Positions 35,866-64,000 of a DNA stretch of 64,000 nucleotides are shown here, in pieces (positions within the stretch are counted from its first letter, which is position 1; the number at the start of each line of letters is the position of its first letter). This DNA comes from Thermodesulfobacteriota bacterium (lineage in GTDB: Bacteria; Desulfobacterota; Desulfarculia; JACQYL01), in assembly GCA_963675595.2 (NCBI GenBank), contig CAXXLZ010000001.1, forward strand, positions 416,001 to 480,000, read 5' to 3'. The translations under genes were made by a program, and so were the position numbers. The notes below the pieces were generated by a model, which was not told where the DNA came from, ran no database searches, and worked only from the letters and a program-made list of their open reading frames with translations.

Positions 35866-37221
35866 ATGCGCTGTCTCTTTGTTAATCCACAAATCGGCGA
35901 CTTTTTCGAGGGGCTGACTCCCGGGCAGGTGCCCTTGCTCAAAAGGGTGGTGGCCGGCAGCAGAACGTTGCGGGAACGCCTCGAATTCAGCCGCAAAGCC
36001 CTGTCGTCGTTAGGACTCCTCACCGCGGCGACTGTGGGCTCCGGAGTTCGGCCCGGCGTACATTTCGACTTTATCGACGAGAATCTGGATGCGCGGGCGG
36101 TGGAAGACGAGCTCGAGCAGGGAGTGGACCTTCTTGCTCTGGGCGGTACCGTCTATCAGATGAATCGCATCCTGGCCTTGATCCGGGAAGCGGTTAAGCG
36201 GAAGATTCCCGTTGTGGTGGGCGGCGCTGCGGCGATGACCTTCCCGGACCTGTTTATGCGGAAAGGCGTCTCCGTCGTTCTTGGAGAGAGTGAGCCACTT
36301 TTCCCGGAATTCTTGACCGATTGGGAAAAGGGCGCTCCCAAAGGCAGGTACGAGTCGCATTCCAATGCCGGTATGGATCTCAAACACTCTCCCGTGCCGG
36401 ACTTCTCTCTGGCCGAGACGTACGACCACACCTTCGTCGGGATTCAGACGAGCCGGGGCTGTCCCTATCACTGTGAATTCTGTCAAGTCTCCGGGATGCT
36501 TGGAGACACCTACCGACGAAAACCCTTGGAGCGTATCGTGGAAGAAACACGGCGGGTGAAGTCTCTGTGGCCCGATGCGTTCTTTTTCTTCTATGACAAC
36601 AATTTTTTTGCCGACCGTGAGTTCGCGCGCGGTGTCCTTTTAAGTCTATCCCGCGAAGGCGTAAAGCTGGGGCGGTGGGGCACCAACGCCGACGCTTCGG
36701 TGTACGAAGACGGGGAGCTGCTGGATTTGGCGATGAGCCTCGGTCCTCTGGATTATCTGGGTATCGGGTTCGAATCTCTTTCCGGGGACAGCCTGAGCAC
36801 CATAAAGAATCGGAAGAAAGCCGGCCTTCTGAAGAAGTACGATGAGGTTGTAGCGGCCCTTAAGGCCAAAGGTGTGGGCGTTTTCGGATATTTCATGTTC
36901 GGGTTCGAAAACGGCACGGCGGGCGATCTGGAAGCGGCGGTCCAATTTATTCTTCATCACGATATTGACGCCCAAATCAGCCGCCTTGTTCCCATGCCCG
37001 GAACCCGTCTTTATGATCGACTACTGGACGAGGTCCGGGAACGATCCGGTGCGGTGAGCAGAGGGCCTTTAGGACGTTGGAATCAAGTGCGGGAATTGCT
37101 TCTGGAGAAGAGCGGCTTTACTTTGCTCGGCCTTACCGAGTTGCTGGCCGGAGCCTATGAACGGATCTACGACGATTCCAGGCGCGCTTCGGCTCTCCCG
37201 CTGCCTGCTCCCTTTCTTTGA
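35866..37221 (+). CDS. Cobalamin-binding radical SAM protein #1
   Basis: SLGLLT, IDEN, IPVVVGG (B12-binding domain); QTSRGCPYHCEFC; IGFES; YFMFGF. Confidence 0.9.
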   Translation: MRCLFVNPQIGDFFEGLTPGQVPLLKRVVAGSRTLRERLEFSRKALSSLGLLTAATVGSGVRPGVHFDFIDENLDARAVEDELEQGVDLLALGGTVYQMNRILALIREAVKRKIPVVVGGAAAMTFPDLFMRKGVSVVLGESEPLFPEFLTDWEKGAPKGRYESHSNAGMDLKHSPVPDFSLAETYDHTFVGIQTSRGCPYHCEFCQVSGMLGDTYRRKPLERIVEETRRVKSLWPDAFFFFYDNNFFADREFARGVLLSLSREGVKLGRWGTNADASVYEDGELLDLAMSLGPLDYLGIGFESLSGDSLSTIKNRKKAGLLKKYDEVVAALKAKGVGVFGYFMFGFENGTAGDLEAAVQFILHHDIDAQISRLVPMPGTRLYDRLLDEVRERSGAVSRGPLGRWNQVRELLLEKSGFTLLGLTELLAGAYERIYDDSRRASALPLPAPFL

Positions 37222-37257
37222 CGGCGCCGCCGCACTATCCCGTGTTTAGGAGCTGAA

Positions 37258-40200
37258 TTGCATTCGGACGAGGAACATTATCGCCGTTGGAAAGGGGAAT
37301 TGCAAACGGCCGAGGCCGTGGCGGTCGTGGGACTGGCCGCCCGGCTCCCCGGGGCTTCCGATATCCTGCGGTTCTGGAGGAACCTGGAGTCGGCCAGGGA
37401 CTGCATCACGGAAGTGACCCGTTGGAACCACGAATCGCTGTTTTCAACCAACCGGGAAGAGCCGGGAAAGACTTACTGTAAATGGGGGGGCTTCCTCGAC
37501 AGTGTGGACCGTTTCGATTCGGGATTCTTTCAGGTATCCCCGGCCCAGGCCCTCGAAATGGACCCAAGGCAGCGGCTGTTTCTGGAAGTCGCCTGGGAAG
37601 CCATCGAGAACGCGGGCATACCGGCGAGAGACCTCGCCGGCTCAAAGACCGGTGTGTTCGTGGGGGCTTCGAACAATCAGTACCTTCATCTATGGGGAAG
37701 CTCCGGTCTCGGAAGAATGAACGGTCTGGACAATACCGGCGCCGGTATCGCCAATCGCGTGTCCTTCTTCCTGGATTTGCGGGGACCGAGCACCGCGGTG
37801 GACACCACCTGCTCTTCTTCGATGACGGCGGTTCACACAGCCTGCCGGAGCCTGCTTTCGGGCGAATCGGAAACCGCGCTGGCCGGGGGAGTTCATCTGA
37901 ATCTTCTTCCGGAATATTACCTGACCATGAGCCGGATGCGCCTCCTGGCGTCCGAGGGGAAGCACCGGGTACTGGACCGACGGGCCGACGGCTTCATACC
38001 CGGAGAAGGCGTCGCGGTTGTGGTGCTCAAGCCGTTGGACCGGGCAATCCGCGACGGAGATACGATTCATGCGGTCATTCGGGGCTCGGCCGTGAATTAC
38101 TCCGGCAGGACGGGCCATTTGACGGAGCCGTCCCCGGAGGCCGAGAAGGAGGTGGTGGCCGAAGCCTTGGCCCGGTCGGATGTGGACCCGGAAAGCGTCT
38201 CTTATATCGAGCTCAACGGGGCGGGTACGGTCCTGGGCGATTCCGCGGAGGCCAACGCGCTTGGGGAGATATTCGGCGGGAATCGGAGCGGTCCCCTGTT
38301 CCTGGGCTCGGTGAAGAGCGGCATCGGCAACCTCGAGGCCGCCTCCGGCTTGGTGGGAATGATCAAAGTGATCCTGTCCATGCGTTTCCGAACCTTGCCC
38401 GCCATGCTTCATTTCGAGCAACCCAACCGGTTCGTTCGGTGGCGGGAGCTACCTTTTCAGGTGGTTTCGGAAACCGTACCGTGGGATGAGCGTTGTCGTC
38501 CCTTTCGTGCCGGGGTGAGTTCCTTCGGAGTGGGTGGAGCCAACGTACATGTCGTGCTCGAAGAGTGCCCCCGAGACATGGGAAACAAGGGACTCCCGGG
38601 CACCGTTCACCTATCACGGCCGCGTGAGGTTGATGAACGCCCCAGGCTCTTCGTCTGTTCGGCCCGGTCTCGTGAGGCGCTGAAACAGGGGCTGAGCAGA
38701 CTGTACCAAACGGTGGCGGAACGGATAGGCCCCGACGACCTTGGGAATCTGGCCTACACTCTGGCTGCGGGCAGGGAGCATTTCTCCCATCGTTTGGCCT
38801 GGGTCGTCTCCACCGGGGATGAGCTGCTTTCCGCCATGCGCCGATGCATGGAAACGGAAACATGGGAAAGTCTTTCCGAGGAGGAAGGGTGCTTTTACGG
38901 GGTGGCACCGACAACGAATACAAGGCGAAAAAAATCCTTCCCATGGATGGCCGAGGGAAAAAAGGAGGCGGCATCCGCCCGTCGTAACCCTGAGTTCGTA
39001 TTCGCCTTTGCGGCCTTCCGACCCGAGGATACGGCTTCATGGCGGGATGTGGAGTCTTGCGGAGCACCGGCTTGGATCCGCAAGTCCCTCATGGAACGGA
39101 AAGGCAAGGTGAACGCACTCCTGGACCGCTTTTTGTCGTCTGCGCGAGAGCGAGGCTTCACGCTTTCCAGCCAAGTCGCCGATAAGATCGAATGGGTGCT
39201 TCGAGGCATGGCGTTTCAGGAAACCGCAGCGCGCTTTCTATGGGAACTCGGTGTTCGGCCCGTCCGGACCGTGGCGGTCGGGTGGGGGGAATATGCGAAA
39301 CACTGCTTCGAGAATCCCGATGAATTGGAGACGATCTGCTCGGACTTGATGAACCGGGCGTCCTTGGACGAGCCGTTCATGGGAGAGTCCGATCCGCCTT
39401 TTGGTGTTTCCGACCCTGATGTTTTTGTTTTTTCGCCCGCATCGGTGCTTCGAGGCGGCGAGCTGTTGGGTCGGGCCGCCCGAGCCCACGTGCGGGGAGT
39501 GAGCCTCCGGTGGGAGTTGTCGACGGACGACGGTCTCAAACGCAAGTTGGCGTTACCCTCCTATCCTTTCGAGGGGCGGAGGTATTGGCCCGTTCCGGAC
39601 GGTGTCGAGCCGACAGGATCCGAGGCCTTGGAAGTCGGCGTGGAGAGGGAAGCGGCCGAGAACGCCAACCGCGCTTCGACGGATGTGGGGCCGGTTCGCT
39701 CCGAGGACCTTGCAGAGCGGATTAGTTCCGTTTTCATGCACGGCATGGTGGAGAAACTGGGCTTTCGCCCTGAAGAAATCGATGTGGACCGGCCGTTGGA
39801 GGCCTATGGATTCGACTCCATTTTCCTGGTTTCCTGCCTGGAGGAGTTGGAGCGGTCTTTGGGTGTGGTCATCAGCCGTTTCGAGGTCACGGATGCATCG
39901 ACTCTTCGGGGTATCGTGGAATGTTGCGTCTCCGTGGTCCTTCGGAAAAGTCCTGCTTCGGGCACCATTCGCCACACGTTTTCGGTGGGTACCCGCCGAA
40001 CCGATCGGAACGACTCCGAGGAGAGAATCGCAGTGGTGGGGATGGCGGGACGTTTTCCGGGAGCGGACGACCTGGACGAATACTGGGAGAACCTAATTTC
40101 CGCTCGGGAGTCCATTGTGGAGGTTCCACAGGAACGCTTCGACCTGTCTGCGCTCTACGACCCGGATTCCAGAAAGCCGGGGAAGACGGTCTCGAAATGG

Positions 40201-41307
40201 GCGGGGCTCATCCGGGATATCGATTCCTTCGACGCTGCCGGCTTCCACGTGCATCCCAGAGCGCTGCGGAGCATGGACCCGCAACAACGGCTTCTCCTAC
40301 AGGAGGCGAAAAAAGCCCTCACGGACGCCGGGTACGAGCCCGGAAGCGGTCTTCCCAAGCGAGTGGGTGTCTACGTCGGCGTGAGCGCCCATGAATACGC
40401 GTGGCGGCTGCTGCGCGACGGAAAGCCGCTGGATCATTACGCGGGTCTGGGAACGGCCCGATCCATGGCGGCGAACCGGATATCTCATTTCTTCGGTTTT
40501 ACGGGGCCGAGCCTCACCGTGGATACGGCCTGTTCCTCCTCTTTGGCCGCCGTTCACCTGGCGGTGCGGGCTCTGCAAAGAGGGGAATGCGACGTCGCTC
40601 TGGCAGGCGGCGTCAACTTGATTCTGGACCCGTCGGCGTTCTTGATCTTCAGCAAGGCGGGTGTGCTTTCCCCCTCGGGGAGTTGCAGGGTATTCGACGA
40701 CGGTGGGGACGGGTACGTGCGCGGAGAAGCGGCGGGCGTGGTGGTACTTGAAACTCTGGATCGGGCCTTGCGTAATGAGGACGGAATCCGAGGAGTGGTG
40801 CTGGGCTCGGCGCTCAATCATAACGGCGAAAACTTCAGCATCACCGCGCCGAGTCTCCGCGGGCAAATTGCTCTGCTGGAGGAGGTCTACGGAGGCACGG
40901 GCGTCGATCCGGGTTCGATTTCCTACGTGGAGGCCGGAAGCACGGGGAGCAGGGAAGGCGATCCTTTGGAGACGAGGGCTCTCCTCTTCGTGCTGGATGG
41001 GTCGTCGTCTCCCGTGTCGTGCGCCTTGGGGTCCGTCAAACCCAATATCGGACACGCCGAGGCGGCATCGGGTATCGCAGGGTTGCTCAAAGTACTGCTT
41101 GCCCTGCAACGAAAAACCATTCCGCCTTTAGTGATCCATTCGGCCATGAACCGGGCGATCGATCTTTCGGCTTCGCGATTGTTCATTCCGCATGGGCCTC
41201 TCGGGTGGCCCGTGGGCGAACTCCCGAGACGTGCCGCCGTCACTTCCTTCGGGTACGGGGGAGCCAACGCGCATTTGGTAGTGGAAGAGGCGCCGTCGGC
41301 CGACTGA
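37258..41307 (+). CDS. AT-less type I PKS-like protein KS-(AT remnant)-ACP-KS; both KS non-canonical
   Basis: KS1 DTTCSS / ELNGAGT / GIGNLE; LPSYPFEGRRYW linker; ACP GFDSIF (Ser 39817); KS2 DTACSS / EAGSTGS / NIGHAE; no GHSxG AT motif; TTG start with AGGAG SD. Confidence 0.92.
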   Translation: MHSDEEHYRRWKGELQTAEAVAVVGLAARLPGASDILRFWRNLESARDCITEVTRWNHESLFSTNREEPGKTYCKWGGFLDSVDRFDSGFFQVSPAQALEMDPRQRLFLEVAWEAIENAGIPARDLAGSKTGVFVGASNNQYLHLWGSSGLGRMNGLDNTGAGIANRVSFFLDLRGPSTAVDTTCSSSMTAVHTACRSLLSGESETALAGGVHLNLLPEYYLTMSRMRLLASEGKHRVLDRRADGFIPGEGVAVVVLKPLDRAIRDGDTIHAVIRGSAVNYSGRTGHLTEPSPEAEKEVVAEALARSDVDPESVSYIELNGAGTVLGDSAEANALGEIFGGNRSGPLFLGSVKSGIGNLEAASGLVGMIKVILSMRFRTLPAMLHFEQPNRFVRWRELPFQVVSETVPWDERCRPFRAGVSSFGVGGANVHVVLEECPRDMGNKGLPGTVHLSRPREVDERPRLFVCSARSREALKQGLSRLYQTVAERIGPDDLGNLAYTLAAGREHFSHRLAWVVSTGDELLSAMRRCMETETWESLSEEEGCFYGVAPTTNTRRKKSFPWMAEGKKEAASARRNPEFVFAFAAFRPEDTASWRDVESCGAPAWIRKSLMERKGKVNALLDRFLSSARERGFTLSSQVADKIEWVLRGMAFQETAARFLWELGVRPVRTVAVGWGEYAKHCFENPDELETICSDLMNRASLDEPFMGESDPPFGVSDPDVFVFSPASVLRGGELLGRAARAHVRGVSLRWELSTDDGLKRKLALPSYPFEGRRYWPVPDGVEPTGSEALEVGVEREAAENANRASTDVGPVRSEDLAERISSVFMHGMVEKLGFRPEEIDVDRPLEAYGFDSIFLVSCLEELERSLGVVISRFEVTDASTLRGIVECCVSVVLRKSPASGTIRHTFSVGTRRTDRNDSEERIAVVGMAGRFPGADDLDEYWENLISARESIVEVPQERFDLSALYDPDSRKPGKTVSKWAGLIRDIDSFDAAGFHVHPRALRSMDPQQRLLLQEAKKALTDAGYEPGSGLPKRVGVYVGVSAHEYAWRLLRDGKPLDHYAGLGTARSMAANRISHFFGFTGPSLTVDTACSSSLAAVHLAVRALQRGECDVALAGGVNLILDPSAFLIFSKAGVLSPSGSCRVFDDGGDGYVRGEAAGVVVLETLDRALRNEDGIRGVVLGSALNHNGENFSITAPSLRGQIALLEEVYGGTGVDPGSISYVEAGSTGSREGDPLETRALLFVLDGSSSPVSCALGSVKPNIGHAEAASGIAGLLKVLLALQRKTIPPLVIHSAMNRAIDLSASRLFIPHGPLGWPVGELPRRAAVTSFGYGGANAHLVVEEAPSAD

Positions 41308-41397: not shown

Positions 41398-42729
41398 TTG
41401 GTTGTTTTGCTGGTGAATCCCAACCGGGTTAAGCCTCTAGTCCCTCCGTTGGGACTGGAATACTTGTCCGATGCGCTGCGCCTTGCCGGGCACGAAGTGC
41501 TTTTCTTCGATCTGGGATTCCGGCCTCCCGCGTCTTTGTTCGAGCTGGTTCGGCGGAAGAAGCCTGACATCATCGGGGTTTCCATCCGAAACCTGGACGA
41601 CGTCACCCTGCTTCGGAAGCACAACTACGTGCCCGGCATCGTCCGTCTGGTGAGGGAACTCCAACGTGTCTCGGATGCCCGGATCGTTCTGGGGGGGGCC
41701 GGCTTCTCGATTCTACCCCGAGAGCTCATGGAAGTCACGGGTGCGGATTTCGGGATTGCCGGTGATGGGGAAGAAGCCATGGTGGGGCTTCTGAACGATC
41801 TCGGTCAACCGCAACATATTCCCCGGGTTTGGTTCCGGGAGGGTGGTCCTTCGGGGCCGGTCCGTTTTTCTTTCGAGGGGCTTTCCGGGTCCTGGGGAGC
41901 CGGTTGCTCGCCACGTTCACTGCTGGACTACGCAGGATATCTGCGTCGAGGGAGTTCGTGCAACGTTCAGACCAAACGAGGTTGCACTCACCGTTGTCTA
42001 TACTGTCCAGAGCCGCGTGTTATGGGACGGATGATGCGGCTGCGCCCCGCGGAAGCGGTTGCGGAGGAGTTCGAAATCCTCGCTTCCATGGGCGTCCGGG
42101 AGCGGGTCTTTTTGGTGGACTCGGAATTTAATCTTGTTGAGGAACATGCCCTGGAAGTCTGTCGGATTCTGACGGAAAGGGCCTCCGGGGTGAAATGGGT
42201 ATGTTCCATGACCCCGAAATACGTGACGGAAGAACTCATCGGCTTGATGAAACGGGCGGGTTGTGACATGGTGATTTGGAGCGTGGACTCCGTATCCGAT
42301 GCAACACTGCAATCCCTGAGAAAAGACGTAGAGGAGACGGATGTTTTTCGAGTGTGCGGCTGGTGCGAAAAGGCGGGCTTGCCTTATTGTCTGGCACTGC
42401 TGCTTGGCGGACCGGCGGAAACGCCGGACACATTGAAGGCAACCTTTCGGAACGCCGGGAAGACTCGGGCGGCGTTTATCGCCGTGGGTGTCGGCTTGAG
42501 AATCTATCCAGGTACCGGTTTGCACGAAGTGGCCTTGGCGGAGGGCCAAGTGACCCGAGAAACGGATTTCCTGCAGCCTGTGTACTATCGAGAAGCTTGG
42601 GTGCGCGACACGTTGATTCCTCTGGTTCGAACGCAGATCGCAGAGGAGAGAAGGGCGGTGATGTTCGGCTCTCGACCGGACGTGACGGTCGAGGCGGAGA
42701 TTCGGAAGGTTTATCCCGTGCCCTTTTGA
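41398..42729 (+). CDS. Cobalamin-binding radical SAM protein #2 (lipid-biosynthesis/TsrM-like N-terminus)
   Basis: LLVNPN..KPLVPPLGLEYL, IGVSIRNLDD, LGGAGFS, QTKRGCTHRCLYCPEP, VDSEFN, GLRIYPGT. Confidence 0.9.
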   Translation: MVVLLVNPNRVKPLVPPLGLEYLSDALRLAGHEVLFFDLGFRPPASLFELVRRKKPDIIGVSIRNLDDVTLLRKHNYVPGIVRLVRELQRVSDARIVLGGAGFSILPRELMEVTGADFGIAGDGEEAMVGLLNDLGQPQHIPRVWFREGGPSGPVRFSFEGLSGSWGAGCSPRSLLDYAGYLRRGSSCNVQTKRGCTHRCLYCPEPRVMGRMMRLRPAEAVAEEFEILASMGVRERVFLVDSEFNLVEEHALEVCRILTERASGVKWVCSMTPKYVTEELIGLMKRAGCDMVIWSVDSVSDATLQSLRKDVEETDVFRVCGWCEKAGLPYCLALLLGGPAETPDTLKATFRNAGKTRAAFIAVGVGLRIYPGTGLHEVALAEGQVTRETDFLQPVYYREAWVRDTLIPLVRTQIAEERRAVMFGSRPDVTVEAEIRKVYPVPF

Positions 42730-46397: not shown

Positions 46398-46662
46398 CAA
46401 CTCGAATCCTCATGGGAAAATCACCTTGGGATGGAATTTCCGAGAGCCGGTTCCGGTAGACCTTGCCGGGCAATCAAAGGCGCTCTTATGGAGGCAAAGT
46501 CGTTCATGCGAAGTTTTGGCCAAGAGCGTTGCCCAATGGTGCCCCGACTCTTGTCCGGCTTGAGAGGCTTCACGTCCTTCCCCGCTTTCGGACTCTTATG
46601 GATGGGGCCGGCGGCCGAGCGTGCGCTTCGAGCTCTTCTTTTCGAGGACCTTTCGCGTGCCG

Positions 46663-53383: not shown

Positions 53384-53394
53384 CGGCGAGGTCC

Positions 53395-55731: not shown

Positions 55732-57300
55732 TTGCATTCAACGGTCTCCTTCTTGGAGGACGCCGCCGAGGAATATTCGGGAAAGACCGCATTGATGGGA
55801 GCCGGTCGAAAGACCACCTATGCGGAGTTGCGGGCCGGCGCCCGCCGGTTTTCGGAGGCTCTTCAAAGCGGGGGGGTGAAGCCCGGGGCCAGAGTCGTGC
55901 TGAGCTTCACCCGTGAAACGGAATTCGTCCAAGCCTATTGGGGAGCCCTTCTGGCTTCGGCGATTCCCGTGTTGGTGAGCGCGGCGATGCCTCCCTCCAA
56001 GCTGGAATACGTGATCAACGACTCGGGCGCGGCAGCCTTCGTTGGTGCCGAGGCCGCGTTCAAGGCACTGCCCGAGCCTCCCTCGTCGCTGAAGACCGCT
56101 TTGCTGATTTGTGGAGGCGCGGGTGGGCCGGAGAGAGGCTTCCAAATCGAGATTCCGAACAGCGGCGTGAATGTGCATCGGCCGGACGGGGGGGCCCCGG
56201 AATCTCCCGGTGAACGGGAAGGGATTCCGGGATTCACCTGTATTTACACTTCGGGAACCACGGGCCGACCCAAGGGGGTCATGCTTTCGGCAACCAACAT
56301 CCGGTACGGAACCCGCATGATCCGGGAGTTCTTGGCCCTCGGTCCGGAAGACCGGAGCCTTCCGGCCATGCCGTTCACCCATTGTGCCGGACTGCTCCAC
56401 CTCCTCGCCCTTCTCGAGACGGGGGGGGCGGTGGTCACGGGATTTGCACCGGCATTGCCCGGTTCTTTCCTCAACGCCGTGAGGGATTTGAAGGTGACCG
56501 TCCTGCCGGTGGTTCCGGCGATGATGACCTTGCTTCTCAGCCGTTACGGAAGAGACCTGCCGGAGCGGTGTCGATCCCTCAGGGTGATGGAGTTCTCCAG
56601 CGCTCCGTTGGCGCCGTCCCTGGTGCGGGAGGTTCGCGGACTGCTTCCGCAGGTTGATCTGTTCAATACTTACGGCCTCACCGAGGCACCCAGAATCACC
56701 TACGCCCGCCTCGAAAGCGAAGAGGGCGACGAGGACCATGTGGGACGGGTGAATCCGGAGCTGACCGTGTTCATCGACCGATCCGCAAACCCTTCCGACA
56801 AGGTGGGGGAGGTTTGCGCGCAAGGGCCCAATGTGGCCGAGGGCGGCTATTGGAACGGTTCCGCGGGCGGTGACGCGCGGTTTTCTTCCAACGGGTTCCG
56901 CACCGGTGACTTAGGTTGGCTGGATGAGGAGAACCGGTTGCATCTCGCCGGGAGATCCGACGATCTGTTCAAGGTGGGAGGAGAAAACGTCTATCCGGAG
57001 GAGATCGAACGGGTCATTTCGTCAATGAAGGGGATATCGGACGCACGGATCGATGCGGTCGAAGACCCCTTGCTCGGCACGCGCATCGTTGCACGCGTGG
57101 TCGGATGTTCCCCCGAAGTGACCGCGAAAGCCGTTTCCGCGTATTGCCTGCGTCATCTCGAACGCTTCAAGGTCCCTTCCCGGATCGATTTTGTCGAAGA
57201 AATTCCACGGACGGAGTCGGGCAAGCACTCCCGGTCCCGGTCTCGTGTTGACTCGGACCCCTGCAGGTTCGGCGGATCCAACGGGAACGGGTCGGCCTAG
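55732..57300 (+). CDS. Class I adenylate-forming enzyme (acyl/aminoacyl-AMP ligase) #1
   Basis: IYTSGTTGRPKG, TYGLTE, FRTGDLG, GENVYPEEIE, PRTESGK. Confidence 0.92.
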   Translation: MHSTVSFLEDAAEEYSGKTALMGAGRKTTYAELRAGARRFSEALQSGGVKPGARVVLSFTRETEFVQAYWGALLASAIPVLVSAAMPPSKLEYVINDSGAAAFVGAEAAFKALPEPPSSLKTALLICGGAGGPERGFQIEIPNSGVNVHRPDGGAPESPGEREGIPGFTCIYTSGTTGRPKGVMLSATNIRYGTRMIREFLALGPEDRSLPAMPFTHCAGLLHLLALLETGGAVVTGFAPALPGSFLNAVRDLKVTVLPVVPAMMTLLLSRYGRDLPERCRSLRVMEFSSAPLAPSLVREVRGLLPQVDLFNTYGLTEAPRITYARLESEEGDEDHVGRVNPELTVFIDRSANPSDKVGEVCAQGPNVAEGGYWNGSAGGDARFSSNGFRTGDLGWLDEENRLHLAGRSDDLFKVGGENVYPEEIERVISSMKGISDARIDAVEDPLLGTRIVARVVGCSPEVTAKAVSAYCLRHLERFKVPSRIDFVEEIPRTESGKHSRSRSRVDSDPCRFGGSNGNGSA

Positions 57301-57302
57301 GC

Positions 57303-58247
57303 ATGGTCGTCGATTTCCACGTTCATTTATTCGACCACGACTGGCTCCCTCGTCGTTGGTGGAAGGCCATGGAGGACTTTCACGAGCGGAGAGGCCCGAT
57401 CAAAGGCCTGGGCAAACCTTTCGATATGGGAGAATACTGCGATCCCTCGGGCGAACGTTTAGTCCGGGAGATGGATGAGGCAGGCATCGACCACAGCGTG
57501 GTGTTTCCTTTGGACGTGGGTCTACTGCTGGGAGAGCCCCCGGTTTCCATACGGAAGCAGAACGAACTCCTCGCGGATGTGGCCCGCAGGTATCCTTCAA
57601 GGATTACGGCCTTTTTCGGAGTGGATCCACGAAGACCAGGGGCCGTTGAATGGATCGAAGCCGGCATCCGAGAGTGGGGCATGGGAGGCGTGAAATTTCA
57701 TCCGGGCTCGGGGTTTCACCTAAGTCGGGAGGAGTTCTTTCCCGTGCTGGAACGAATCGCCGATCTCGGGGTCCCTTTGGTAACGCATACCGGACCCGCT
57801 TTCGGACCTCTGGACGGCAGCGGCTGCGATCCCATGGAACTCGACAAGGCTTTGGGACGCATTCCCGGGCTCAAGATCGTGGCCGCCCATCTGGGCGGTG
57901 GACGGGTGGACGAGCTGTGCTGGTTGGGCGCCATGAAGGAAAGTCTTTATGCGGACATCTCCCTCCGGCAGCTCGAATGTCGCCGGAACCCCGAGGCGTT
58001 CGCTGAGACATTGAGAAAGGCCCTGGATTTCATGGGGCCCGACCGGATTCTATTCGGTACGGACTGGCCGTTTTCCCGAAAGGCGATGGCGGCGGGAGCG
58101 TATGTTCGAGCTCTTCGGGAGTTTTCCCGCGGCTCGTCGGCCGTTCTGCTCTCCGGTGAAATCAAACGATTGCTGGGGGGTAACGCCCTCCGGCTTCTGG
58201 GAAAAAAAGGAGAGGCTCTTCAGCGTGGATATCGAGTCGACACGTGA
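57303..58247 (+). CDS. Amidohydrolase_2 family metal-dependent hydrolase
   Basis: DFHVH, KFHP, HTG, AAHLG, FGTDWP, GGNA. Confidence 0.88.
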   Translation: MVVDFHVHLFDHDWLPRRWWKAMEDFHERRGPIKGLGKPFDMGEYCDPSGERLVREMDEAGIDHSVVFPLDVGLLLGEPPVSIRKQNELLADVARRYPSRITAFFGVDPRRPGAVEWIEAGIREWGMGGVKFHPGSGFHLSREEFFPVLERIADLGVPLVTHTGPAFGPLDGSGCDPMELDKALGRIPGLKIVAAHLGGGRVDELCWLGAMKESLYADISLRQLECRRNPEAFAETLRKALDFMGPDRILFGTDWPFSRKAMAAGAYVRALREFSRGSSAVLLSGEIKRLLGGNALRLLGKKGEALQRGYRVDT

Positions 58248-58482
58248 ATCGGTTTATAGGTTTATACGGGATGAAATGAACCATGGAGAGGAGTTTCCTC
58301 TGGAGACCGACCTGATTCAACAGGGGCTGATCGACTCCATGGGCGTGATGAAACTTATCGGCTTCCTTGAAACGACCTTCGGCATCCAGATCGAATTGGA
58401 CCGGGTAAGCGCGGAGCATTTTCAGTCCGTGGGGGCCGTGGCGGATCTGGTGGCCTCATGCGAGAAGGGCGAGACTGCGTGA
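58225..58482 (+). CDS. Stand-alone carrier protein (DltC/aminoacyl-ACP-like)
   Basis: LIQQGLIDSMGVMKLIGFLETTFGI; GTG start at 58225 after AAGGAGAGG. Confidence 0.85.
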   Translation: MDIESTRESVYRFIRDEMNHGEEFPLETDLIQQGLIDSMGVMKLIGFLETTFGIQIELDRVSAEHFQSVGAVADLVASCEKGETA

Positions 58483-58751
58483 TGATGGAAAGAGAAGGGG
58501 TCCTTGCCCTGATCGAAGAGTTTATCAGGGATACGTGCAACATCCCGGCAGACACTCCCGGATTCACCAGATCGTGCGATCTTTTTGAGGAAGGGTTCGT
58601 GGATTCCATGGCCCTGGTGAGGCTCGTCGCTTTCCTGGAATCCGAATTCGATGTTGAAATCGAAGAAGAGAATTTATTCGACGAGCGCTTCCTGACCATC
58701 GAAGGACAGGGAGACTTGGTCCTGGAACTGAAGAATTCAGTGGGGCGGTAA
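58482..58751 (+). CDS. Stand-alone carrier protein (DltC/aminoacyl-ACP-like), second copy
   Basis: LFEEGFVDSMALVRLVAFLESEFDV; start overlaps upstream stop. Confidence 0.87.
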   Translation: MMEREGVLALIEEFIRDTCNIPADTPGFTRSCDLFEEGFVDSMALVRLVAFLESEFDVEIEEENLFDERFLTIEGQGDLVLELKNSVGR

Positions 58752-59073
58752 GGCGAGGACGGAAGAACGTCCGAGCCTGTCATGAGTTCGCTGCACCCCC
58801 GATAGGATGCGCGTTTGGGTCGTCCTTGGACGCTTCCATGAGCCTCGTCCTCGATTTGGAGCCTCGGTCCCGTGAGGGCGGGCCATAGTCCCCGTCCTGC
58901 GCGCAAGAACACACAGATACCGAGAGTCCCCTTAGGATACGGCGGAGTTGGGAGAACAGTCACGATTCCGGCGTCCGATTCTTTCCTGATGGATGTTTCA
59001 AATGTATTATTCCCCGACCACTCCGTGGACGCGCACCTGAAAGGGTTCATGGCAAGCTGTGGTGAGGTCATCC

Positions 59074-62067
59074 ATGTCGGCTGACATGAGTCACCGGGAC
59101 ATTGCCGTCATCGGCATGGCGTTTCGTTTGCCCGGAGGAGACGATCCGGAGGTTTTCCGGGATCGGCTTCTTGCGTCGGAAGACTGCCTGGGAACGTGGC
59201 CGGATTCCATCCGCAGCGGTGCGCGGGGTCCCGTGAGGCCTGCCGGAATCATCCAAGGAGTCGACCTGTTCGACGCTGCGTATTTTGGAATCGCTCCTCG
59301 CGAAGCCGCCTTGACGGATCCAAGGCGGCGTTTGGTTCTCGAGATGTCCGCCACCGCGCTGGAGACCTGCGGCTATGGAGGAGATCGTCTTCGAGGTTCC
59401 GACACCGGGGTGTTCCTCGGCGTGAGCAACAATGGAGACTACGGCACCGGGGGCGCCGCCGGGGGCTTGGGAGCACTCAACGTATCGGACGCCATGATCG
59501 CTCACGAGGTGTCCCGATTCTTTGATTTCACGGGACCCAGCCAGGTGGTGGACACCCTCTGTTCTTCGGCCTTGGCGGCGGTGCACCAAGCCTGTTGCGC
59601 CTTGCGGGAAGGTCGTTGCTCAACGGCTCTGGCCGGAGGCGTCAGCCTGCTTCTTTCGGTGAGTCATTTCGAAGCCCTGGAAGGCATGGGACTGCTGTCG
59701 CGATCCGGAAAATGTCGAACCTTCGACGTGGATGCCGACGGATTCGTCCTGGGAGAAGGCGTGGGCGTGTTTCTCCTGAAGTCTTTGAAAGCCGCACTTC
59801 GAGACGGGGACCCGCTTTGGGGCGTGATCAAAGGCGGTGCCGTGGCTTTCAACGGGCGTGGAGAACACCCCTTGGCCCTGCGTGCCGAAGCGGTGGAGCG
59901 AGTGGTGACGCGGGCCATGAGGGACGCGGGGACCGCTCCGGCCGCCATCTCCTTTATCGAAACCGCCGGAACCGGGACCCCCATGGGAGACGCCGCCGAG
60001 GTTCGAGGGCTGCGTTCGGCCTTTGGTTCCGCGGTCGGTAAGGCACCTTTCTGTGGATTGGGAGCCGTGAAGACCCGTGTGGGCAACCTCGAAGCGGCCT
60101 CGGGGATTGCCGCACTGGTAAAGACTTTGTTGATGATGCGGGGGAAATTCATTGCGGCGAACCTGAACTTCCATCGTGTGAATCCGCTTATCCGGCTCAA
60201 AGGATCGCCCTTCCGTCTCTGCAACGAGCTCGACGAATGGACGACGGCCAACCGGGCGCCCAGGAGGGCGGGAGTTTCCGCTTTGGGCATAGGAGGAGCT
60301 CATTACCACCTGATCCTGGAGGAGCCGCCTTCGGAAGGGTTTACCCTGGGACCGAGTCGACCGCGAACATCCGAGCCGCTCTTGCTGTGCCTTTCGGCCG
60401 GGAGCCTTTTCCAACTCAGAGAGCTTTGCCGCAGGTACCGGCGCAGGCTCGAGGATCTTTCGGAATGCACGCCCGAGGAGCTTTGTCACACCCACAACAC
60501 CGGAAGCGGAGATCTGCCGGTTCGGCTGGCCTTGACCGCCCGAGACGGGGAGGAACTTATTGGCCTTCTGAAGCGGGGCGAGTTCGACGACCCCGTGCCC
60601 CGACACGGTTTGGAGGGCATGTTCTTCCACGACGGTTACGCTGGGGATATCCGAAGGAAACGGAACCCCCTCAAAGATCTTCGTTCTCCGAGCGGTGAGG
60701 GCGGGCGGGCCGATCCCGAACGCCTTGCCGGACGAACCGGACTGATTCAGGGTGATTTGGTGTCGTGCGAACATCCCGAGACTGCACTCCAATCCATCGG
60801 CGTTTCGCTCGGTGAATGGGGGGTCAGGGTGGGCCCTTCGATAAGCGCTGCGGCCGGCGACACGCAGCCCGACGCCGAGGCGATGGTGCCGGACCGCCTG
60901 CGCGAATGCGTCTCCCGAGGTATTCGCACTTTTGTAACCATGGGGCTGTCGGACGATTTTCGCAACCGGATTTCGGAAGAGGTGCCGGAAGCGTTTCTGA
61001 TTCCGTGGCCCGGCTCGGGCGCCGATCTTATGGAGCGCAGGCGTCTCGCGGCCGCACTTTACGCACATGGCGCCCGTCTCGATTTCGAAATGCTTCAGGG
61101 GAGCGGCAACCTTCGCAAAGCGATGTTGCCGCCGTACCCTTTTGCCCGGAAATCTTTTTGGAGAACGGCTCCCGATGATGGGCTGCATAAGGCTTCGCCG
61201 GCCGGGACTTGTGCTGCGGAGAGGATTTCACCTGAAGACCTCGCCGGGATGCCCCCATCGGAGTTGAAGGAACGGGTGGAGGGCTTTCTGAGGGAGGCGG
61301 CCTGCGAAAGCGCGGGCTTGGATTGCGGGAAAGAAGAGATCGTGCTCTTCTCGGATTGGTGCTTGGACTCACTGGCGCGCGTTCAACTCGCCCGTCGGGT
61401 CGAGTCTCGGTTCGGAGTCCGCATTGACCTTCAGGCGTTTCTGCGGCATGACCACGTGGCTCTGCTGGCCGAATACGTGGTGGGCCGGATTCGGTATGGG
61501 AGCGTGGAAAAGCCCGTGGAGCCCCGAGAGGATGATCATCGGGCTCGGGTCATCCTGGAGACGGCTTCCGCCGCTCATTGGGAGGCGGTGCGTGCCTGGC
61601 TGAACGACGAGGGAGTCAACCAGTGGCTGGATCCGTTTTTCCAGGAAGGATTCGGCGCTCGAGAATACGCCTACTTCCTGAAACAACGGGATCGGAATAC
61701 CTGGGTCATCGTGGAGGACGGAATTCCGGTGGGAATCTGCGGGCTGGTCCAGGTGGACCTGCGCAACCTCGGCGCGGAAACCTGGATCGTGGTGGGCGAC
61801 CTCTCGGCGCGTCTCAGGGGTGCGGCCGTTGCCGCGGGCGAAGCTTTGTGTGGAAAGGCGTTTCTTGAATTGGGCCTAAGAACCTTGAACGCCAAGGTGA
61901 GATGGGACAATGTTCCCGCCTTGGAAATGACGGAGTACTCGGGTTGGAGGCGGGTGGGCACCCTTAGAAACTCCCTGAAGGTGGGAGATGCCTTCCACGA
62001 CAGGGAGCTTTTCGAACTGACCCGTGAGGATTTCGAGGACCGGCGGAATCGAGGCGAAACTCCATGA
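59074..62067 (+). CDS. AT-less PKS-like protein KS-(AT remnant)-ACP-GNAT; KS non-canonical
   Basis: KS DTLCSS / ETAGTGT / RVGNLE; LPPYPFARKSFW; ACP CLDSLA (Ser 61369); C-terminal RimJ/RimL-like GNAT (AFLELGLRTL.A.V..DN..A...GW..VG.LR). Confidence 0.9.
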   Translation: MSADMSHRDIAVIGMAFRLPGGDDPEVFRDRLLASEDCLGTWPDSIRSGARGPVRPAGIIQGVDLFDAAYFGIAPREAALTDPRRRLVLEMSATALETCGYGGDRLRGSDTGVFLGVSNNGDYGTGGAAGGLGALNVSDAMIAHEVSRFFDFTGPSQVVDTLCSSALAAVHQACCALREGRCSTALAGGVSLLLSVSHFEALEGMGLLSRSGKCRTFDVDADGFVLGEGVGVFLLKSLKAALRDGDPLWGVIKGGAVAFNGRGEHPLALRAEAVERVVTRAMRDAGTAPAAISFIETAGTGTPMGDAAEVRGLRSAFGSAVGKAPFCGLGAVKTRVGNLEAASGIAALVKTLLMMRGKFIAANLNFHRVNPLIRLKGSPFRLCNELDEWTTANRAPRRAGVSALGIGGAHYHLILEEPPSEGFTLGPSRPRTSEPLLLCLSAGSLFQLRELCRRYRRRLEDLSECTPEELCHTHNTGSGDLPVRLALTARDGEELIGLLKRGEFDDPVPRHGLEGMFFHDGYAGDIRRKRNPLKDLRSPSGEGGRADPERLAGRTGLIQGDLVSCEHPETALQSIGVSLGEWGVRVGPSISAAAGDTQPDAEAMVPDRLRECVSRGIRTFVTMGLSDDFRNRISEEVPEAFLIPWPGSGADLMERRRLAAALYAHGARLDFEMLQGSGNLRKAMLPPYPFARKSFWRTAPDDGLHKASPAGTCAAERISPEDLAGMPPSELKERVEGFLREAACESAGLDCGKEEIVLFSDWCLDSLARVQLARRVESRFGVRIDLQAFLRHDHVALLAEYVVGRIRYGSVEKPVEPREDDHRARVILETASAAHWEAVRAWLNDEGVNQWLDPFFQEGFGAREYAYFLKQRDRNTWVIVEDGIPVGICGLVQVDLRNLGAETWIVVGDLSARLRGAAVAAGEALCGKAFLELGLRTLNAKVRWDNVPALEMTEYSGWRRVGTLRNSLKVGDAFHDRELFELTREDFEDRRNRGETP

Positions 62068-63623
62068 ATACCTTGCCGGAGTGCATTCGAGCGGCCGCAG
62101 CAGCGGGCGACAAAGAAGCCCTCGTGTTCGGAAAGGAACGGCTTACTTACGGCGATCTCGATAGGCGTTCGAGCCGTTTGGCCGGACTGCTCCGGCGGGC
62201 CGGGGTGCGCAAAGGAGACCGGGTCGGCCTCGTAATGCCCAATTGCGTGGAGAGTGTCGTTGCATTCACGGCGATCCTCAAGATGGGGGCCGTGGAAGTG
62301 GGATTCCATCTCGAGACATCGGTGGAAACCCTGGCGCGGGCGTTCCGCGAGGTGGACGCATCTCTGGTGATTTGCGCGCGCACGCCGGTCTCCAAGATGA
62401 AAGACCTGATCAGAGCCTTACCCTCCCTCAACTGGGTCATCGACGGCATCCCTCCCGATGTGGGAACAAGCGAGGGAGCATTCATCGACCTGGCGGAGGC
62501 CGAGAGGGAGCACGATGATTTTGATTTCGGCCTGGACGATCCTTCCACTCCCCTTGTCCAGTTTACGTCGGGATCCACGGGAGAGCCCAGGGGCGTCGTG
62601 TTGACCCAGGCCGGGTTTCTCGCCGCGTCGCGGGCCAGGAATGAATTCCTGCATCTGGACCGGGACGACCGGATTCTCGATATTCTCAAACTCTCCCATT
62701 CCTGCGGCAAGTCCCTGCTTTTCGACGCCTTTTACCTGGGGGCCTGTCTCGTGCTGGGTAAAGGACTCGTCCCTCCCTCCGCGTTCATCAAAACGGTGGT
62801 GGGTGAGAAGGTGAGTCTGATTACCGGCCCGCCCTACCTGTTCGAAGTGCTCCTGAAGATTCGCAACGATGTTCGGGTCATGGAAGCGCTGAAGAATTCG
62901 CTGAGATTCCTGGAGGTGGGCATGGCGCATCCATCCGTGAGGCTGCTCAAGGATTTGAGGAGCGTGTTTCCCTGGACGTCTCTGGTGAATCGTTATGGGC
63001 TCACGGAAAATGCCGGTGCGGCTTCTCTCCAGGTTCACGCGTCCGAAGACGGAGACAGGTTTGGGACCATGGGACGCGGCTGTTCCGTCATGCAATTGGA
63101 TCTGGTGGACGAATCCACCGGTCTGCCCTCGGATTCCAACGCGGGCACGATCCGATTGCGAGGCGAGGCTCTCATGCTGGGCTACTGGGACGAATGGAGC
63201 GCGGGACGCAGGACGGATTACGCTGTTTCCGGTTTCGTTACCGGAGACCGGGCCGAAAGGGACTCGGAAGGGTTTTTCTATTTCAAAGGACGCGGCGACC
63301 ATCTGTTGAAAGTGTGCGGGGAACGGATCGCTCCCGAAGAAATCGAGGAAGCGGTCTGCGCACTCCCCGGAATTGCCGAGGTCACGGTTTTCGGTGTGGA
63401 AGACGACTTGACGGGTGACCGAATTGTCTGCCTTTACCGTGCGGCCGGGGAGGTAGCGCCTGAATCGGTCAAGGCTCACTGCGCCCGATCGTTGCCTTCC
63501 TACAAAGTCCCCGCCGTGGTTCTTGTTTCCAGCGAACCCATCCCCCGCACCGCCACCGGAAAGATATCCAGGCGGCTGGCCCGGGAAGCCTACCTGTCCG
63601 GCGGGTATACCGGAGAGGAATGA
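62064..63623 (+). CDS. Class I adenylate-forming enzyme #2
   Basis: QFTSGSTGEPRG, RYGLTE, FVTGD, GERIAPEEIE, PRTATGK; ATGA-coupled to the PKS-like gene. Confidence 0.92.
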   Translation: MNTLPECIRAAAAAGDKEALVFGKERLTYGDLDRRSSRLAGLLRRAGVRKGDRVGLVMPNCVESVVAFTAILKMGAVEVGFHLETSVETLARAFREVDASLVICARTPVSKMKDLIRALPSLNWVIDGIPPDVGTSEGAFIDLAEAEREHDDFDFGLDDPSTPLVQFTSGSTGEPRGVVLTQAGFLAASRARNEFLHLDRDDRILDILKLSHSCGKSLLFDAFYLGACLVLGKGLVPPSAFIKTVVGEKVSLITGPPYLFEVLLKIRNDVRVMEALKNSLRFLEVGMAHPSVRLLKDLRSVFPWTSLVNRYGLTENAGAASLQVHASEDGDRFGTMGRGCSVMQLDLVDESTGLPSDSNAGTIRLRGEALMLGYWDEWSAGRRTDYAVSGFVTGDRAERDSEGFFYFKGRGDHLLKVCGERIAPEEIEEAVCALPGIAEVTVFGVEDDLTGDRIVCLYRAAGEVAPESVKAHCARSLPSYKVPAVVLVSSEPIPRTATGKISRRLAREAYLSGGYTGEE

Positions 63624-63675
63624 AATACTTCCCGCGGCGTATGGGCAAAAAGGGAGTGGTCGATTGAAACGAGGT

Positions 63676-64000
63676 ATGGAAACGGCCCGTCGTTTCTTCC
63701 GTAGCTTCGGCGAGGAACTGGTCATCGGAGGCGTTCCGGCTTCCGAAATCGCGGACATGGCCGGCACCCCGTGTTATGTCTATGATTTGGATCTGATGCG
63801 GCGGAATCTGGAAGGATTGCGGGAAGGATTGGACCCCGCCGTCGAGATTTTCTATTCCGTCAAAGCCAATCCGGCTTTGGCTTTGTGCCGGGAATTCGCG
63901 AAACTCGGCCTGGGGGCCGAAGTGGCCTCGCTTGGAGAACTGGAAACGGCGCTGGAGGCGGGATTCTCTCCGGATCGTATCGTGTTCGCAGGTCCGGGAA
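63676..64000 (+). CDS. PLP-dependent type III decarboxylase (LysA/BtrK-like); partial, runs off the window and is not in the ORF track
   Basis: Manual translation from ATG 63676 (GAGG SD): ...GTPCYVYD...IFYSVKANP...GAEVASLGEL...IVFAGPG. Confidence 0.85.
   Translation, partial: METARRFFRSFGEELVIGGVPASEIADMAGTPCYVYDLDLMRRNLEGLREGLDPAVEIFYSVKANPALALCREFAKLGLGAEVASLGELETALEAGFSPDRIVFAGPG

Follow-up and report, generated by a model that had tools for sequence, protein, structure and literature searches.

What can a cluster of acyl carrier proteins (ACPs) and ketosynthases (KSs) be making when none of its KS domains keeps a full catalytic triad, and when these proteins are surrounded by enzymes of radical families? 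The question is posed by the right-hand part of a 64,000-nucleotide stretch of the genome of an uncultured Thermodesulfobacteriota bacterium (assembly GCA_963675595.2, contig CAXXLZ010000001.1, positions 416,001 to 480,000; the whole stretch is called the window here), where an unbroken + strand series of 21 co-oriented genes runs from 35866 to 64000. An earlier note on this DNA had described it as a biosynthetic cluster that works on carrier proteins (thiotemplated) and is dominated by radical enzymes sensitive to oxygen, and had guessed at a lipid or an acyl-amide as its product; the domain content supports the description, and the guess is taken up below. The locus is a real, conserved, orphan cluster. 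Tentatively, and somewhat short of an even balance of belief, we read it as a non-elongating, amide-forming and probably thioamide-forming carrier pathway that would join Had-like dehydration, reduction by an acyl-CoA dehydrogenase (ACAD) family flavoprotein and alkylation by B12-binding radical S-adenosylmethionine (SAM) enzymes, and whose predicted product is a small, C-methylated, probably thioamide-bearing acyl-amide rather than a long polyketide. What was read directly are the domain content, the gene order, the altered KS sites, the PP-loop and three-Cys motif of the protein called g13 below, and the N-myristoyltransferase (NMT)-like fold of g12.

The genes were called from an open reading frame (ORF) listing and from Pfam matches at E<=1e-3, a threshold at which 19 of 21 first-pass ORFs matched at least one family; NCBIfam supplied family-level detail for the window's proteins. 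They are listed here with the main ground for each assignment (AT, acyltransferase domain; PLP, pyridoxal phosphate; GNAT and ANL are enzyme families).

g01, 35866 to 37221, + strand: B12-binding radical SAM enzyme (Pfam Radical_SAM, 57 bits; CPYHCEFC motif)
g02, 37258 to 41307, + strand: KS-linker-ACP-KS protein of 1349 aa, without AT (Pfam, motifs, alignment)
g03, 41398 to 42729, + strand: B12-radical SAM enzyme, nearest to TIGR04072, 'lipid biosynthesis B12/rSAM' (NCBIfam)
g04, 42822 to 44351, + strand: B12-radical SAM enzyme, weakly KedN5-like (Pfam, NCBIfam)
g05, 44348 to 45892, + strand: B12-radical SAM enzyme, its start overlapping the g04 stop by 4 nt (Pfam, NCBIfam)
g06, 45990 to 46397, + strand: free-standing 135-aa ACP, extended at its C-terminus (PP-binding)
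g08, 46663 to 47793, + strand: HGD-D family beta-like subunit (PF06050, 189 bits)
g09, 47956 to 49296, + strand: HGD-D family alpha-like subunit (PF06050, 172 bits)
g10, 49337 to 50725, + strand: B12-radical SAM enzyme (Pfam, NCBIfam)
g11, 50718 to 51422, + strand: Sfp-type 4'-phosphopantetheinyl transferase (4PPT_N and ACPS, Pfam)
g12, 51427 to 52416, + strand: tandem-GNAT protein of 329 aa with NMT-like fold (structure, protein atlas)
g13, 52367 to 53383, + strand: PP-loop ATP pyrophosphatase, predicted Fe-S thioamide synthetase, CtaC/TtuA-like (motifs)
g14, 53380 to 54447, + strand: SAM-dependent O-methyltransferase (PF00891)
g15, 54452 to 55594, + strand: ACAD family flavoprotein (Pfam)
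g16, 55732 to 57300, + strand: ANL (AMP-forming) ligase (Pfam)
g17, 57303 to 58247, + strand: Amidohydro_2 metal-dependent hydrolase or decarboxylase (PF04909)
g17b, 58226 to 58482, + strand: free-standing ACP of 85 aa with a GTG start (PP-binding, in ORF 58102 to 58482)
g18, 58479 to 58751, + strand: free-standing ACP (PP-binding)
g19, 59059 to 62067, + strand: KS-linker-ACP-GNAT protein of 1002 aa (Pfam; alignment to 7zma)
g20, 62064 to 63623, + strand: ANL ligase, its start overlapping the g19 stop by 4 nt (Pfam)
g21, 63676 to 64000, + strand: Orn/DAP/Arg-family PLP decarboxylase, N-terminus only (PF02784)

The enzyme inventory of the earlier note proved right almost item for item by Pfam, motifs and, for g12, structure: it had listed five B12-radical SAM enzymes, two AT-less polyketide synthase (PKS)-like proteins (g02 and g19, neither of which matches PF00698), five ACP domains (g02, g06, g18, g19 and the hidden g17b), a Hgd/Bcr-type dehydratase pair (g08/g09), a phosphopantetheinyl transferase (g11), two GNATs (g12, visible by structure only, and the Pfam-detected C-terminal domain of g19), a PP-loop enzyme (g13, which carries SGGKDS), an O-methyltransferase (g14), an ACAD (g15), two AMP ligases (g16 and g20) and a PLP decarboxylase (g21). 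Its 'amidohydrolase' stands as a family assignment for g17, but the role is not supported, the nearest solved relatives being decarboxylases of the LigW/ACMSD type. The ORF listing and Pfam likewise bear out 21 co-oriented genes over more than 28 kb; the suspected translational coupling of several of them finds its counterpart in seven overlapping junctions (-4, -8, -50, -4, -22, -4 and -4 nt), the largest intergenic gap in the series being 307 nt; and the cluster does continue past the window edge, g21 being cut at 64000. The total stays at 21 through the loss of one ORF (46431 to 46673) and the gain of the extra 85-aa carrier protein, g17b.

What, then, do the KS domains of this cluster do? 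In KS enzymes two His residues drive malonyl decarboxylation and a Cys holds the acyl chain, and acyl transfer by the Cys alone, without extension, is the behaviour ascribed to the KS0 domains of trans-AT synthases. When all KS domains were aligned, the triad positions read Cys/Asn/Asn in the first KS of g02, Cys/Gly/His in its second and Cys/Ala/Asn in g19, so that the Cys is kept in 3/3 cluster domains and the full Cys-His-His triad in 0/3. A residue-level comparison of g19 with the solved trans-AT KS 7zma places Ala at the His of HGTGT and Asn at the second His, with the Cys retained. The pattern extends to relatives. A protein at least 90% identical to g02 (P0052) has the same KS motifs, and a search with g19, in which 8000 candidates were scored and 828 proteins reached E<=1e-30, returned among the best 120 of those 828 two KS-ACP-GNAT relatives of full length, P0106 and P0107, another protein (P0108) in which KS, ACP and GNAT recur and whose best local alignment spans 53% of g19, and a near-identical fragment (P0105). 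All five, g19 and its four relatives, combine the Cys with Asn at the second His; the first His position is Ala or Asn in three of the five and fell outside the search pattern, and so was left unread, in the other two. With the Cys kept and one or both His lost, these KSs should be able to take up an acyl group and hand it on, but are not expected to extend it.

Nor do the same proteins contain the domains that usually accompany elongation. No PF00698 (AT) match was found in g02, in g19 or in any of the 47 window ORFs scanned, the Pfam scan of the cluster proteins revealed no AT, ketoreductase (KR), dehydratase (DH), enoylreductase (ER) or thioesterase (TE) domain, and a relaxed Pfam search of the linkers of g02 (residues 530 to 830) and g19 found no hidden AT or DH domain at E<=10. 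As far as sequence can tell, polyketide extension is not encoded within the window. Among solved structures the KS of g19 comes closest to those of trans-AT PKSs (7zma, the 'AT-less polyketide synthase' 4qyr, and PksJ), and RhiE-like and CurL-like linkers are matched by Pfam in the cluster. With trans-AT KS0 modules the cluster thus shares fold and linkers, the kept Cys and lost His, the lack of an integrated AT and an ACP after the KS; it differs from them in that all three of its KSs are of this type, two of them without both His, in that one KS-ACP protein ends in a GNAT, and in that no elongating module, trans-AT or reductive domain occurs in 28 kb. That the 'PKS-like' proteins make a polyketide or lipid chain cannot be assumed, because each of the three KSs lacks one or both catalytic His. 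As to the guess of a lipid or an acyl-amide, the acyl-amide half remains reasonable because of the two GNAT-type N-acyltransferases and the amine-forming decarboxylase, whereas with His-less KSs the lipid chain cannot be taken for granted.

Three of the five carrier domains are free-standing (g06, g17b and g18) and the other two lie within g02 and g19. A dedicated Sfp-type transferase, g11, is encoded in the neighbourhood of the free ones. The start of g17b, the GTG at 58226, is preceded by a ribosome-binding site, AAGGAGAGG, and the ORF of g18 opens at 58458, with a likely start at GTG 58479 or ATG 58482, overlapping the g17b stop.

If acyl groups are merely passed along, where would the chemistry of the product come from? 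One strong lead, drawn from sequence motifs, is that g13 is a CtaC-like sulfur-inserting enzyme. It carries SGGKDS at residues 56-61 together with Cys137, Cys140 and Cys267, all of which are invariant in its ortholog in L001, a locus in a Desulfobacula metagenome-assembled genome (MAG) described below. According to the available text of PMC6772006, a study in which CtaC, the thioamide synthetase of the closthioamide pathway, was reconstituted, the enzyme carries the TtcA/TtuA cluster motif, and substitutions in its ATP site (D77A, S78A) abolished thioamidation, whereas those in its Fe-S site (C154A, C157A, C284A) diminished it. Residues D60, S61, C137, C140 and C267 of g13 each lie 17 positions from D77, S78, C154, C157 and C284 of CtaC, a correspondence of residue numbers taken from that paper rather than of directly aligned sequences (PMC6772006).

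By sequence, neither Pfam nor NCBIfam nor the solved structures of the PDB gave a match for the neighbouring g12. A protein atlas places it among GNAT clusters with a score of 0.96, and an AlphaFold2 (AF2) model built on 22 sequences (pLDDT 92.5) has NMTs as its top Foldseek hits, at E ~1e-17 and TM 0.71-0.78; of the 22 family members, six weakly match Acetyltransf_9 and six match NMT. The predicted fold thus resembles that of the eukaryotic tandem-GNAT NMTs, from which g12 differs in being bacterial, only 7-11% identical and smaller than the matched chains by about 60-110 residues. NMT takes a fatty acyl group off a thioester and passes it to an amine, and g12 is accordingly predicted, on the strength of its model, to be a tandem-GNAT N-acyltransferase. 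The protein is rare: of 1.84 billion representative proteins, 47 are related to it at E<=1e-3, and at E<=1e-30 the number falls to 15.

Radical chemistry is represented by two groups of enzymes. All five B12-radical SAM enzymes (g01, g03, g04, g05 and g10) have a CxxxCxxC motif with Radical_SAM and B12-binding domains, the B12-binding domain of g01 scoring 27.6 bits, below the Pfam cut-off of 32.1. By blastp they fall into three paralogue groups, with g01 and g10 40% identical, g04 and g05 35% identical, and g03 alone. Among NCBIfam families g03 scores 297.9 bits against TIGR04072 (cut-off 360), 174.5 against BzaD and 167.3 against tryptophan 2-C-methyltransferase; the other four reach only 56-87 bits against TIGR04072. 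The second group is the g08/g09 pair. Its beta-like subunit, whose ORF opens with GTG at 46621 and which more likely starts at ATG 46663, has HadC (117 bits) and then BzdN as best solved relatives; the alpha-like subunit, whose start, judged from a 423-aa database version, would lie at 48025, has HadB (117 bits) and then BzdO. HadBC is (R)-2-hydroxyisocaproyl-CoA dehydratase, and its named relatives include HgdAB, LcdAB and the class I benzoyl-CoA reductase BzdNO. The likeness to HadBC lies in a two-subunit HGD-D pair with an ACAD nearby whose best match is acryloyl-CoA reductase; the unlikeness, in low identity and in the absence of an activator ATPase and a CoA-transferase.

In the + strand spacer between g06 and g08 lies an Arg/Gly-rich ORF of 80 aa (46431 to 46673), whose stop is 6 nt past the likely g08 start. 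Pfam and NCBIfam found no family for it and tblastn no counterpart in L001, and it was dropped as probably not a gene, a small coupled peptide being the alternative.

The ACAD, g15, scores 267.6 bits against acryloyl-CoA reductase AcrC, 230.2 against cyclohexane-1-carbonyl-CoA dehydrogenase and 184.7 against prolyl-PCP dehydrogenase in NCBIfam, all below the respective cut-offs. Acryloyl-CoA reductase is the partner of lactoyl-CoA dehydratase in the acrylate pathway. Of the two ligases, g16 is nearest to oxalate-CoA ligase (171 bits), FadD5, MenE (succinylbenzoate) and malonyl-CoA synthetase among solved structures, and g20 to the adenylation domain of LgrA, from a nonribosomal peptide synthetase (NRPS; 165.6 bits), and to FadD13, with 151 bits against benzoate-CoA ligase in NCBIfam. 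A pattern check found no FDxS-type motif, the mark of amino-acid adenylation domains, in either. The nearest solved relatives of g17 are 5-carboxyvanillate decarboxylase (LigW) and ACMSD (E 5e-10 to 2e-8). The part of g21 that falls in the window comprises about 108 residues, with the ORF open from 63523 and a likely start at ATG 63676, and scores 78.2 bits against TIGR03099 and 77.2 against LysA (NCBIfam).

Is this assembly of genes a unit at all? A single scan of species-representative genomes matched 25 stretches, of which two were confirmed as loci, L001 and L002. In L001 the order of g03-g19 is kept for 16 of these 17 genes, at 32-52% identity, more than chance would give, which makes the cluster a selected unit. 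Its counterparts are those of g03, g04/g05 (one copy), g06, g08-g17, both small ACPs and the KS gene; orthologs include those of g03 (43%), g04 (48%), g06 (49% over 131 aa), g10 (50%) and g18 (52%), and g17b has its counterpart at 20154-20429. The locus stops 194 residues into the KS gene. A 1.1-kb AT-rich stretch of L001 (5757-6888), without any ORF of at least 70 aa, splits the g03-like gene from the remainder and may be a promoter/regulatory region or an insertion scar.

L002, in a Bacillota MAG (3-12156), is a smaller cousin that pairs an 1811-aa ACP-KS-ACP-KS protein with an HGD pair. Its radical SAM enzyme lacks a B12 domain, and it also encodes a membrane methyltransferase of the PEMT/ICMT type and an ABC-2 exporter; the KS triads there read Cys/Asn/His in the first domain and Cys/His/His, the canonical form, in the second. 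A dockerin-bearing GH10 xylanase gene adjoins the cluster. The HGD pair thus stands beside KS and ACP genes in all three loci (window, L001 and L002), which suggests that its substrate is carrier-bound. To our knowledge there is no precedent for an HGD-D family enzyme acting on a carrier-bound substrate, and a full-text literature search, thin on subscription papers, found nothing that joins a 2-hydroxyacyl-CoA dehydratase with a biosynthetic gene cluster and an acyl carrier protein. The alpha-like subunit g09 is rare: 47 of 4146 candidates matched it at E<=1e-20, with 15 at 43-54% identity and the next step at 35-38%.

Which known system comes closest? By analogy it is the NRPS-independent, carrier-based closthioamide pathway of Ruminiclostridium cellulolyticum, singled out because it contains the same four kinds of part. 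There, in the portions of PMC7183216 and PMC7898593 available, an ANL ligase loads an acid onto a peptidyl carrier protein (PCP), an Orn/DAP/Arg-family PLP enzyme removes the carboxyl group of an amino acid bound to a carrier, the pieces are joined through a Cys transacylase and CtaC thioamidates on the carrier (PMC7183216; PMC7898593). As far as those texts go, both systems belong to anaerobes and use free-standing carrier proteins without an NRPS, and the counterparts would be CtaI and g16/g20, CtaF and g21, CtaC and the three-Cys PP-loop protein g13, and CtaG and the His-less KS domains. Beyond closthioamide the cluster has three KSs, two GNAT-type acyltransferases, five B12-radical SAM enzymes, the HadBC-like pair, the ACAD, the O-methyltransferase and the Amidohydro_2 protein, while the aldo-keto reductase and aminotransferase of closthioamide have no equivalent in the window. 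The class as such has been noticed before. About 75% of 100 CtaC homologues adjoin thiotemplated genes, mostly in anaerobes, and PKS and radical SAM genes are marked among their neighbourhoods; by 2019 only one bacterial pathway to a thioamide-bearing non-ribosomal peptide had been worked out (PMC6772006, from the text available). The general class is thus already known from the surroundings of CtaC homologues, and the present architecture is not. No published description of the combination was found in a full-text literature search thin on subscription papers; the earlier remark that it is unrecognised holds to that extent, but not in the sense of a cluster without any known relative, the closthioamide logic being shared.

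On the reading favoured here, the genes can be arranged along a closthioamide-like route. The five carrier domains would be primed by the Sfp-type transferase g11, whereupon g16 and g20 would adenylate carboxylic acids and load them onto the free ACPs g06, g17b and g18, much as CtaI does. The three KSs, with an acyl-accepting Cys and no decarboxylation His, could then serve as transacylases that hand acyl groups from carrier to carrier without extension. A 2-hydroxyacyl thioester, bound to a carrier or to CoA, might be dehydrated by g08/g09 through ketyl-radical chemistry, and g15 might afterwards reduce (or form) the enoyl thioester. The five B12-radical SAM enzymes would put methyl or other alkyl groups on unactivated carbons, and g14 would cap a hydroxyl or carboxyl. 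The amine partner might come from the Orn/DAP-family decarboxylase g21, possibly on the carrier as with CtaF; g12, with its NMT-like fold, and the GNAT that ends g19 would form the amide bonds and release the product; and the Fe-S PP-loop enzyme g13 could convert the carrier-bound amide to a thioamide. The KS (through its Cys) and GNAT domains would thereby stand where closthioamide has papain-like and transglutaminase enzymes.

Several points weigh against this reading. It is a reading of genes in which neither substrate nor product appears and every catalytic step is inferred. The comparison that means most for g13 rests on residue numbers, as said, and the protein has only weak PP-loop matches, by sequence and by profile, among solved structures; a profile alignment to TtuA PH0300, which pairs SGGKDS with SGGKDS and PLCFYCG with PPCSYCG, is itself weak (E 0.2). 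Among curated families g13 comes closest to the WbuX-type N-acetyl sugar amidotransferase (52.7 bits; cut-off 203), and the protein atlas puts it with 'N-acetyl sugar amidotransferase / PP-loop', so that amidine or amide formation is, on these matches, a live alternative; its AF2 model, from a two-sequence alignment, has a pLDDT of 47.8. Closthioamide's CtaD (ATP-grasp), CtaG (papain-like) and CtaJ (transglutaminase) find no Pfam equivalent among the window's cluster genes. As for the radical steps, g03 remains under the TIGR04072 cut-off and the other four B12-radical SAM enzymes are far from every curated family, so methylation is assigned to them by analogy, as merely the commonest activity of the class. 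Among the 47 window ORFs scanned and those scanned from L001 and L002, none matched an HgdC/BcrAD_BadFG activator, and what else these two loci encode matches window genes that are not activators; the activator ATPase for g08/g09 could be encoded elsewhere. For g17, whose nearest solved relatives are decarboxylases, the sequence suggests no firm role. Finally, past the window end there may be an acyltransferase and elongating KS modules, and one KS of L002 is canonical.

This last point leads to the rival explanations, which partly overlap with the amide-forming reading and with each other. Could the window hold just the front part of a true trans-AT PKS, its KSs being the KS0 domains of split modules, with the AT and the elongating modules past 64000 and the radical enzymes tailoring the chain? 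The structural kinship of the g19 KS (7zma, 4qyr, PksJ), the RhiE-like and CurL-like linkers, the cut end of the cluster at the partial g21 and the one canonical KS of L002 would all fit. Yet 28 kb contain no KS with a full triad (0/3) and none of the AT, KR, DH, ER and TE domains, no elongating module appears among the 16 genes of L001 (whose KS breaks off after 194 residues), and g19 closes with a GNAT that has the look of a release domain, so that this explanation strikes us as possible but doubtful. Alternatively, the product might be an unusual membrane lipid with a multiply methyl-branched or cyclised fatty acyl chain, akin to those of 'ladderane-type' clusters. Such clusters, of unassigned function, are reported in Desulfobacterota MAGs (PMC9902471, in the part available) and are described as syntenic with Deltaproteobacteria (PMC2649909, likewise), and inositol-lipid or solute genes lie upstream in the window. 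The parallel itself is real, in that a B12-radical SAM enzyme with TIGR04072 as its best family (g03, 297.9 bits) sits beside ACP and KS-family genes in an anaerobe, but it stops short of the cut-off of 360, and the elongating KS is missing. The available text of PMC2649909 gives as features a type II fatty acid synthase with FabF paralogues, a FabZ variant and a phytoene-desaturase-like protein, whereas the window's cluster genes include no FabZ, no free-standing FabF, no phytoene-desaturase-like gene and no glycerolipid acyltransferase. The PP-loop enzyme, the GNATs, the PLP decarboxylase and the ANL ligases indicate amide chemistry instead, and a family so rare is unlike a core membrane function; a lipid seems unlikely.

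What if g13, g14 and g17 perform cryptic protecting-group chemistry (amidation or methyl-esterification and later hydrolysis) on a dicarboxyl-ACP starter, rather than thioamidation? The acids activated by the nearest relatives of g16 (oxalate, malonate and succinylbenzoate) and the amidotransferase family that gives g13 its top score would agree with this, and precedents exist in gladiolin (GbnC/GbnM) and aurantinin (Art28), to judge from the portions available of 10.64898/2026.04.24.720606 and PMC8302727. Against it, g13 has no glutaminase domain and does have the CxxC...C motif of sulfur-inserting enzymes, GbnC is by name an asparagine-synthetase homologue and hence of a different family, and the nearest solved relatives of g17 are not amidases; we give the idea little credence. 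A related comparison is offered by beta-amino-acid starters of the vicenistatin type, for which the accessible text of PMC11284099 lists two adenylating enzymes, an ACP, a PLP decarboxylase, the acyltransferase VinK and the amidohydrolase VinJ. The cluster has the ligases, ACPs and decarboxylase, no AT by Pfam, and, on the amidohydrolase side, the Amidohydro_2/LigW-like protein g17. A pyrrolyl-carrier (Pig/Red) reading, assembled from ligase, ACP, ACAD, KS-KS and O-methyltransferase, was rejected: g15 scores acryloyl-CoA reductase above RedW and PigA, and g02 reaches 263 bits against PigJ, whose cut-off is 900. Or might the genes not be biosynthetic at all, but form a catabolic operon for the anaerobic breakdown of an aromatic or hydroxy acid? 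The resemblance of g08/g09 to BzdN/BzdO and of g17 to 5-carboxyvanillate decarboxylase, together with the scores of g15 against cyclohexane-1-carbonyl-CoA dehydrogenase (230 bits) and of g20 against benzoate-CoA ligase (151 bits), point that way, but five carrier domains, a dedicated phosphopantetheinyl transferase, three KSs, two GNATs and five B12-radical SAM enzymes are foreign to known degradation pathways, and Bcr ATPase subunits and a thiolase or hydratase set are missing; catabolism is thus highly improbable.

Why would the amide- and probably thioamide-forming carrier pathway favoured here matter? The cluster surrounds its carrier proteins with five B12-radical SAM enzymes, a ketyl-radical dehydratase pair and what is probably a thioamide synthetase, and it is conserved between two Desulfobacterota lineages. 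It offers candidates of three kinds: B12-radical SAM enzymes with new reactions on substrates bound to acyl carriers, His-less KSs that would act as transacylases away from classical PKSs, and thioamide natural products of sulfate-reducer-type bacteria; the His-less KS shuttles, the carrier-tied Had-type pair and the CtaC-like enzyme beside five B12-radical SAM enzymes are features open to direct testing. A bolder version can be imagined, which we regard as a long shot. Because there is neither an acyltransferase nor a condensation-competent KS, the five B12-radical SAM enzymes themselves might build and branch an ACP-bound skeleton by radical alkylation, carried out repeatedly, without any Claisen condensation, with the HadBC-type pair acting on the carrier, the KSs shuttling and a CtaC-like enzyme adding sulfur. 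If true, such a 'radical thiotemplate' would be a new logic specific to strict anaerobes, and a HadBC-type ketyl-radical dehydratase would for the first time be found to act on a carrier-bound rather than a CoA-bound substrate.

Searches for further elements returned little. None of nine alternative ORFs (seven antisense and one in an alternative frame within the cluster, one upstream) had a Pfam match, and Rfam gave no riboswitch or other RNA in the entire window at gathering scores. Between 44001 and 64000, promoter-like sites (4, against 4.9 in shuffled controls) and terminator-like sites (23, against 22.3) were uninformative on transcription units.

The surroundings speak to the host. The gene for MnmG lies 2.6 kb upstream, and its product shares 75% identity with a protein labelled 'MAG: Deltaproteobacteria bacterium' and 65-67% with proteins of Candidatus Desulfofervidus, Thermodesulfobacteriota and Desulfobacterales. 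Such a lineage also fits the sigma-54 activators, the Fe-S proteins of HdrD/DsrK type and the many two-component systems encoded upstream; the earlier surmise of an anaerobe agrees with these closest named relatives of MnmG (65-75% identity), which indicate an anaerobe-type lineage. One divergent neighbour is a candidate cluster member:

CobA/CobO-like corrinoid adenosyltransferase, 34674 to 35246, - strand (PF02572, 86.6 bits)

It scores 65 bits in NCBIfam against a cut-off of 185, is separated from g01 by a 619-nt spacer and has no equivalent adjoining L001; it may supply cofactor to the B12 enzymes. Farther out, members of the D-2-hydroxyacid dehydrogenase class feed Hgd-type dehydratases in fermenters, and a gene of this class (30051-31184, - strand) is present, separated from the cluster by mnmG. 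Its end is overlapped by an ORF of 243 aa (29332-30063, - strand) which, like one of 343 aa (33609-34640, - strand), has no Pfam or NCBIfam match. A signalling block on the + strand (17183-29328) comprises three histidine kinases, a sigma-54 activator and four more response regulators, with a DASS/citrate-type transporter (23852-25438) inside it. An ORF of 1215 aa (8408-12055, - strand) without Pfam or NCBIfam match is opposed by a likewise matchless one of 727 aa (8234-10417, + strand). At 861-5870 (- strand), a MobA-like nucleotidyltransferase, a HAD phosphatase, an inositol-3-phosphate synthase (437 bits) and a CDP-alcohol phosphatidyltransferase, the last nearest to archaeal-type DIPP synthase (116.6 bits, below cut-off), look from sequence like a pathway to an inositol-phosphate solute or an inositol lipid. 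The Fe-S protein encoded at 12620-13966 (- strand) has a CCG domain and is HdrD/DsrK-like; the family that it matches best, with 208 bits (cut-off 530), is 'pyridine nucleotide-disulfide oxidoreductase/dicluster-binding protein'.

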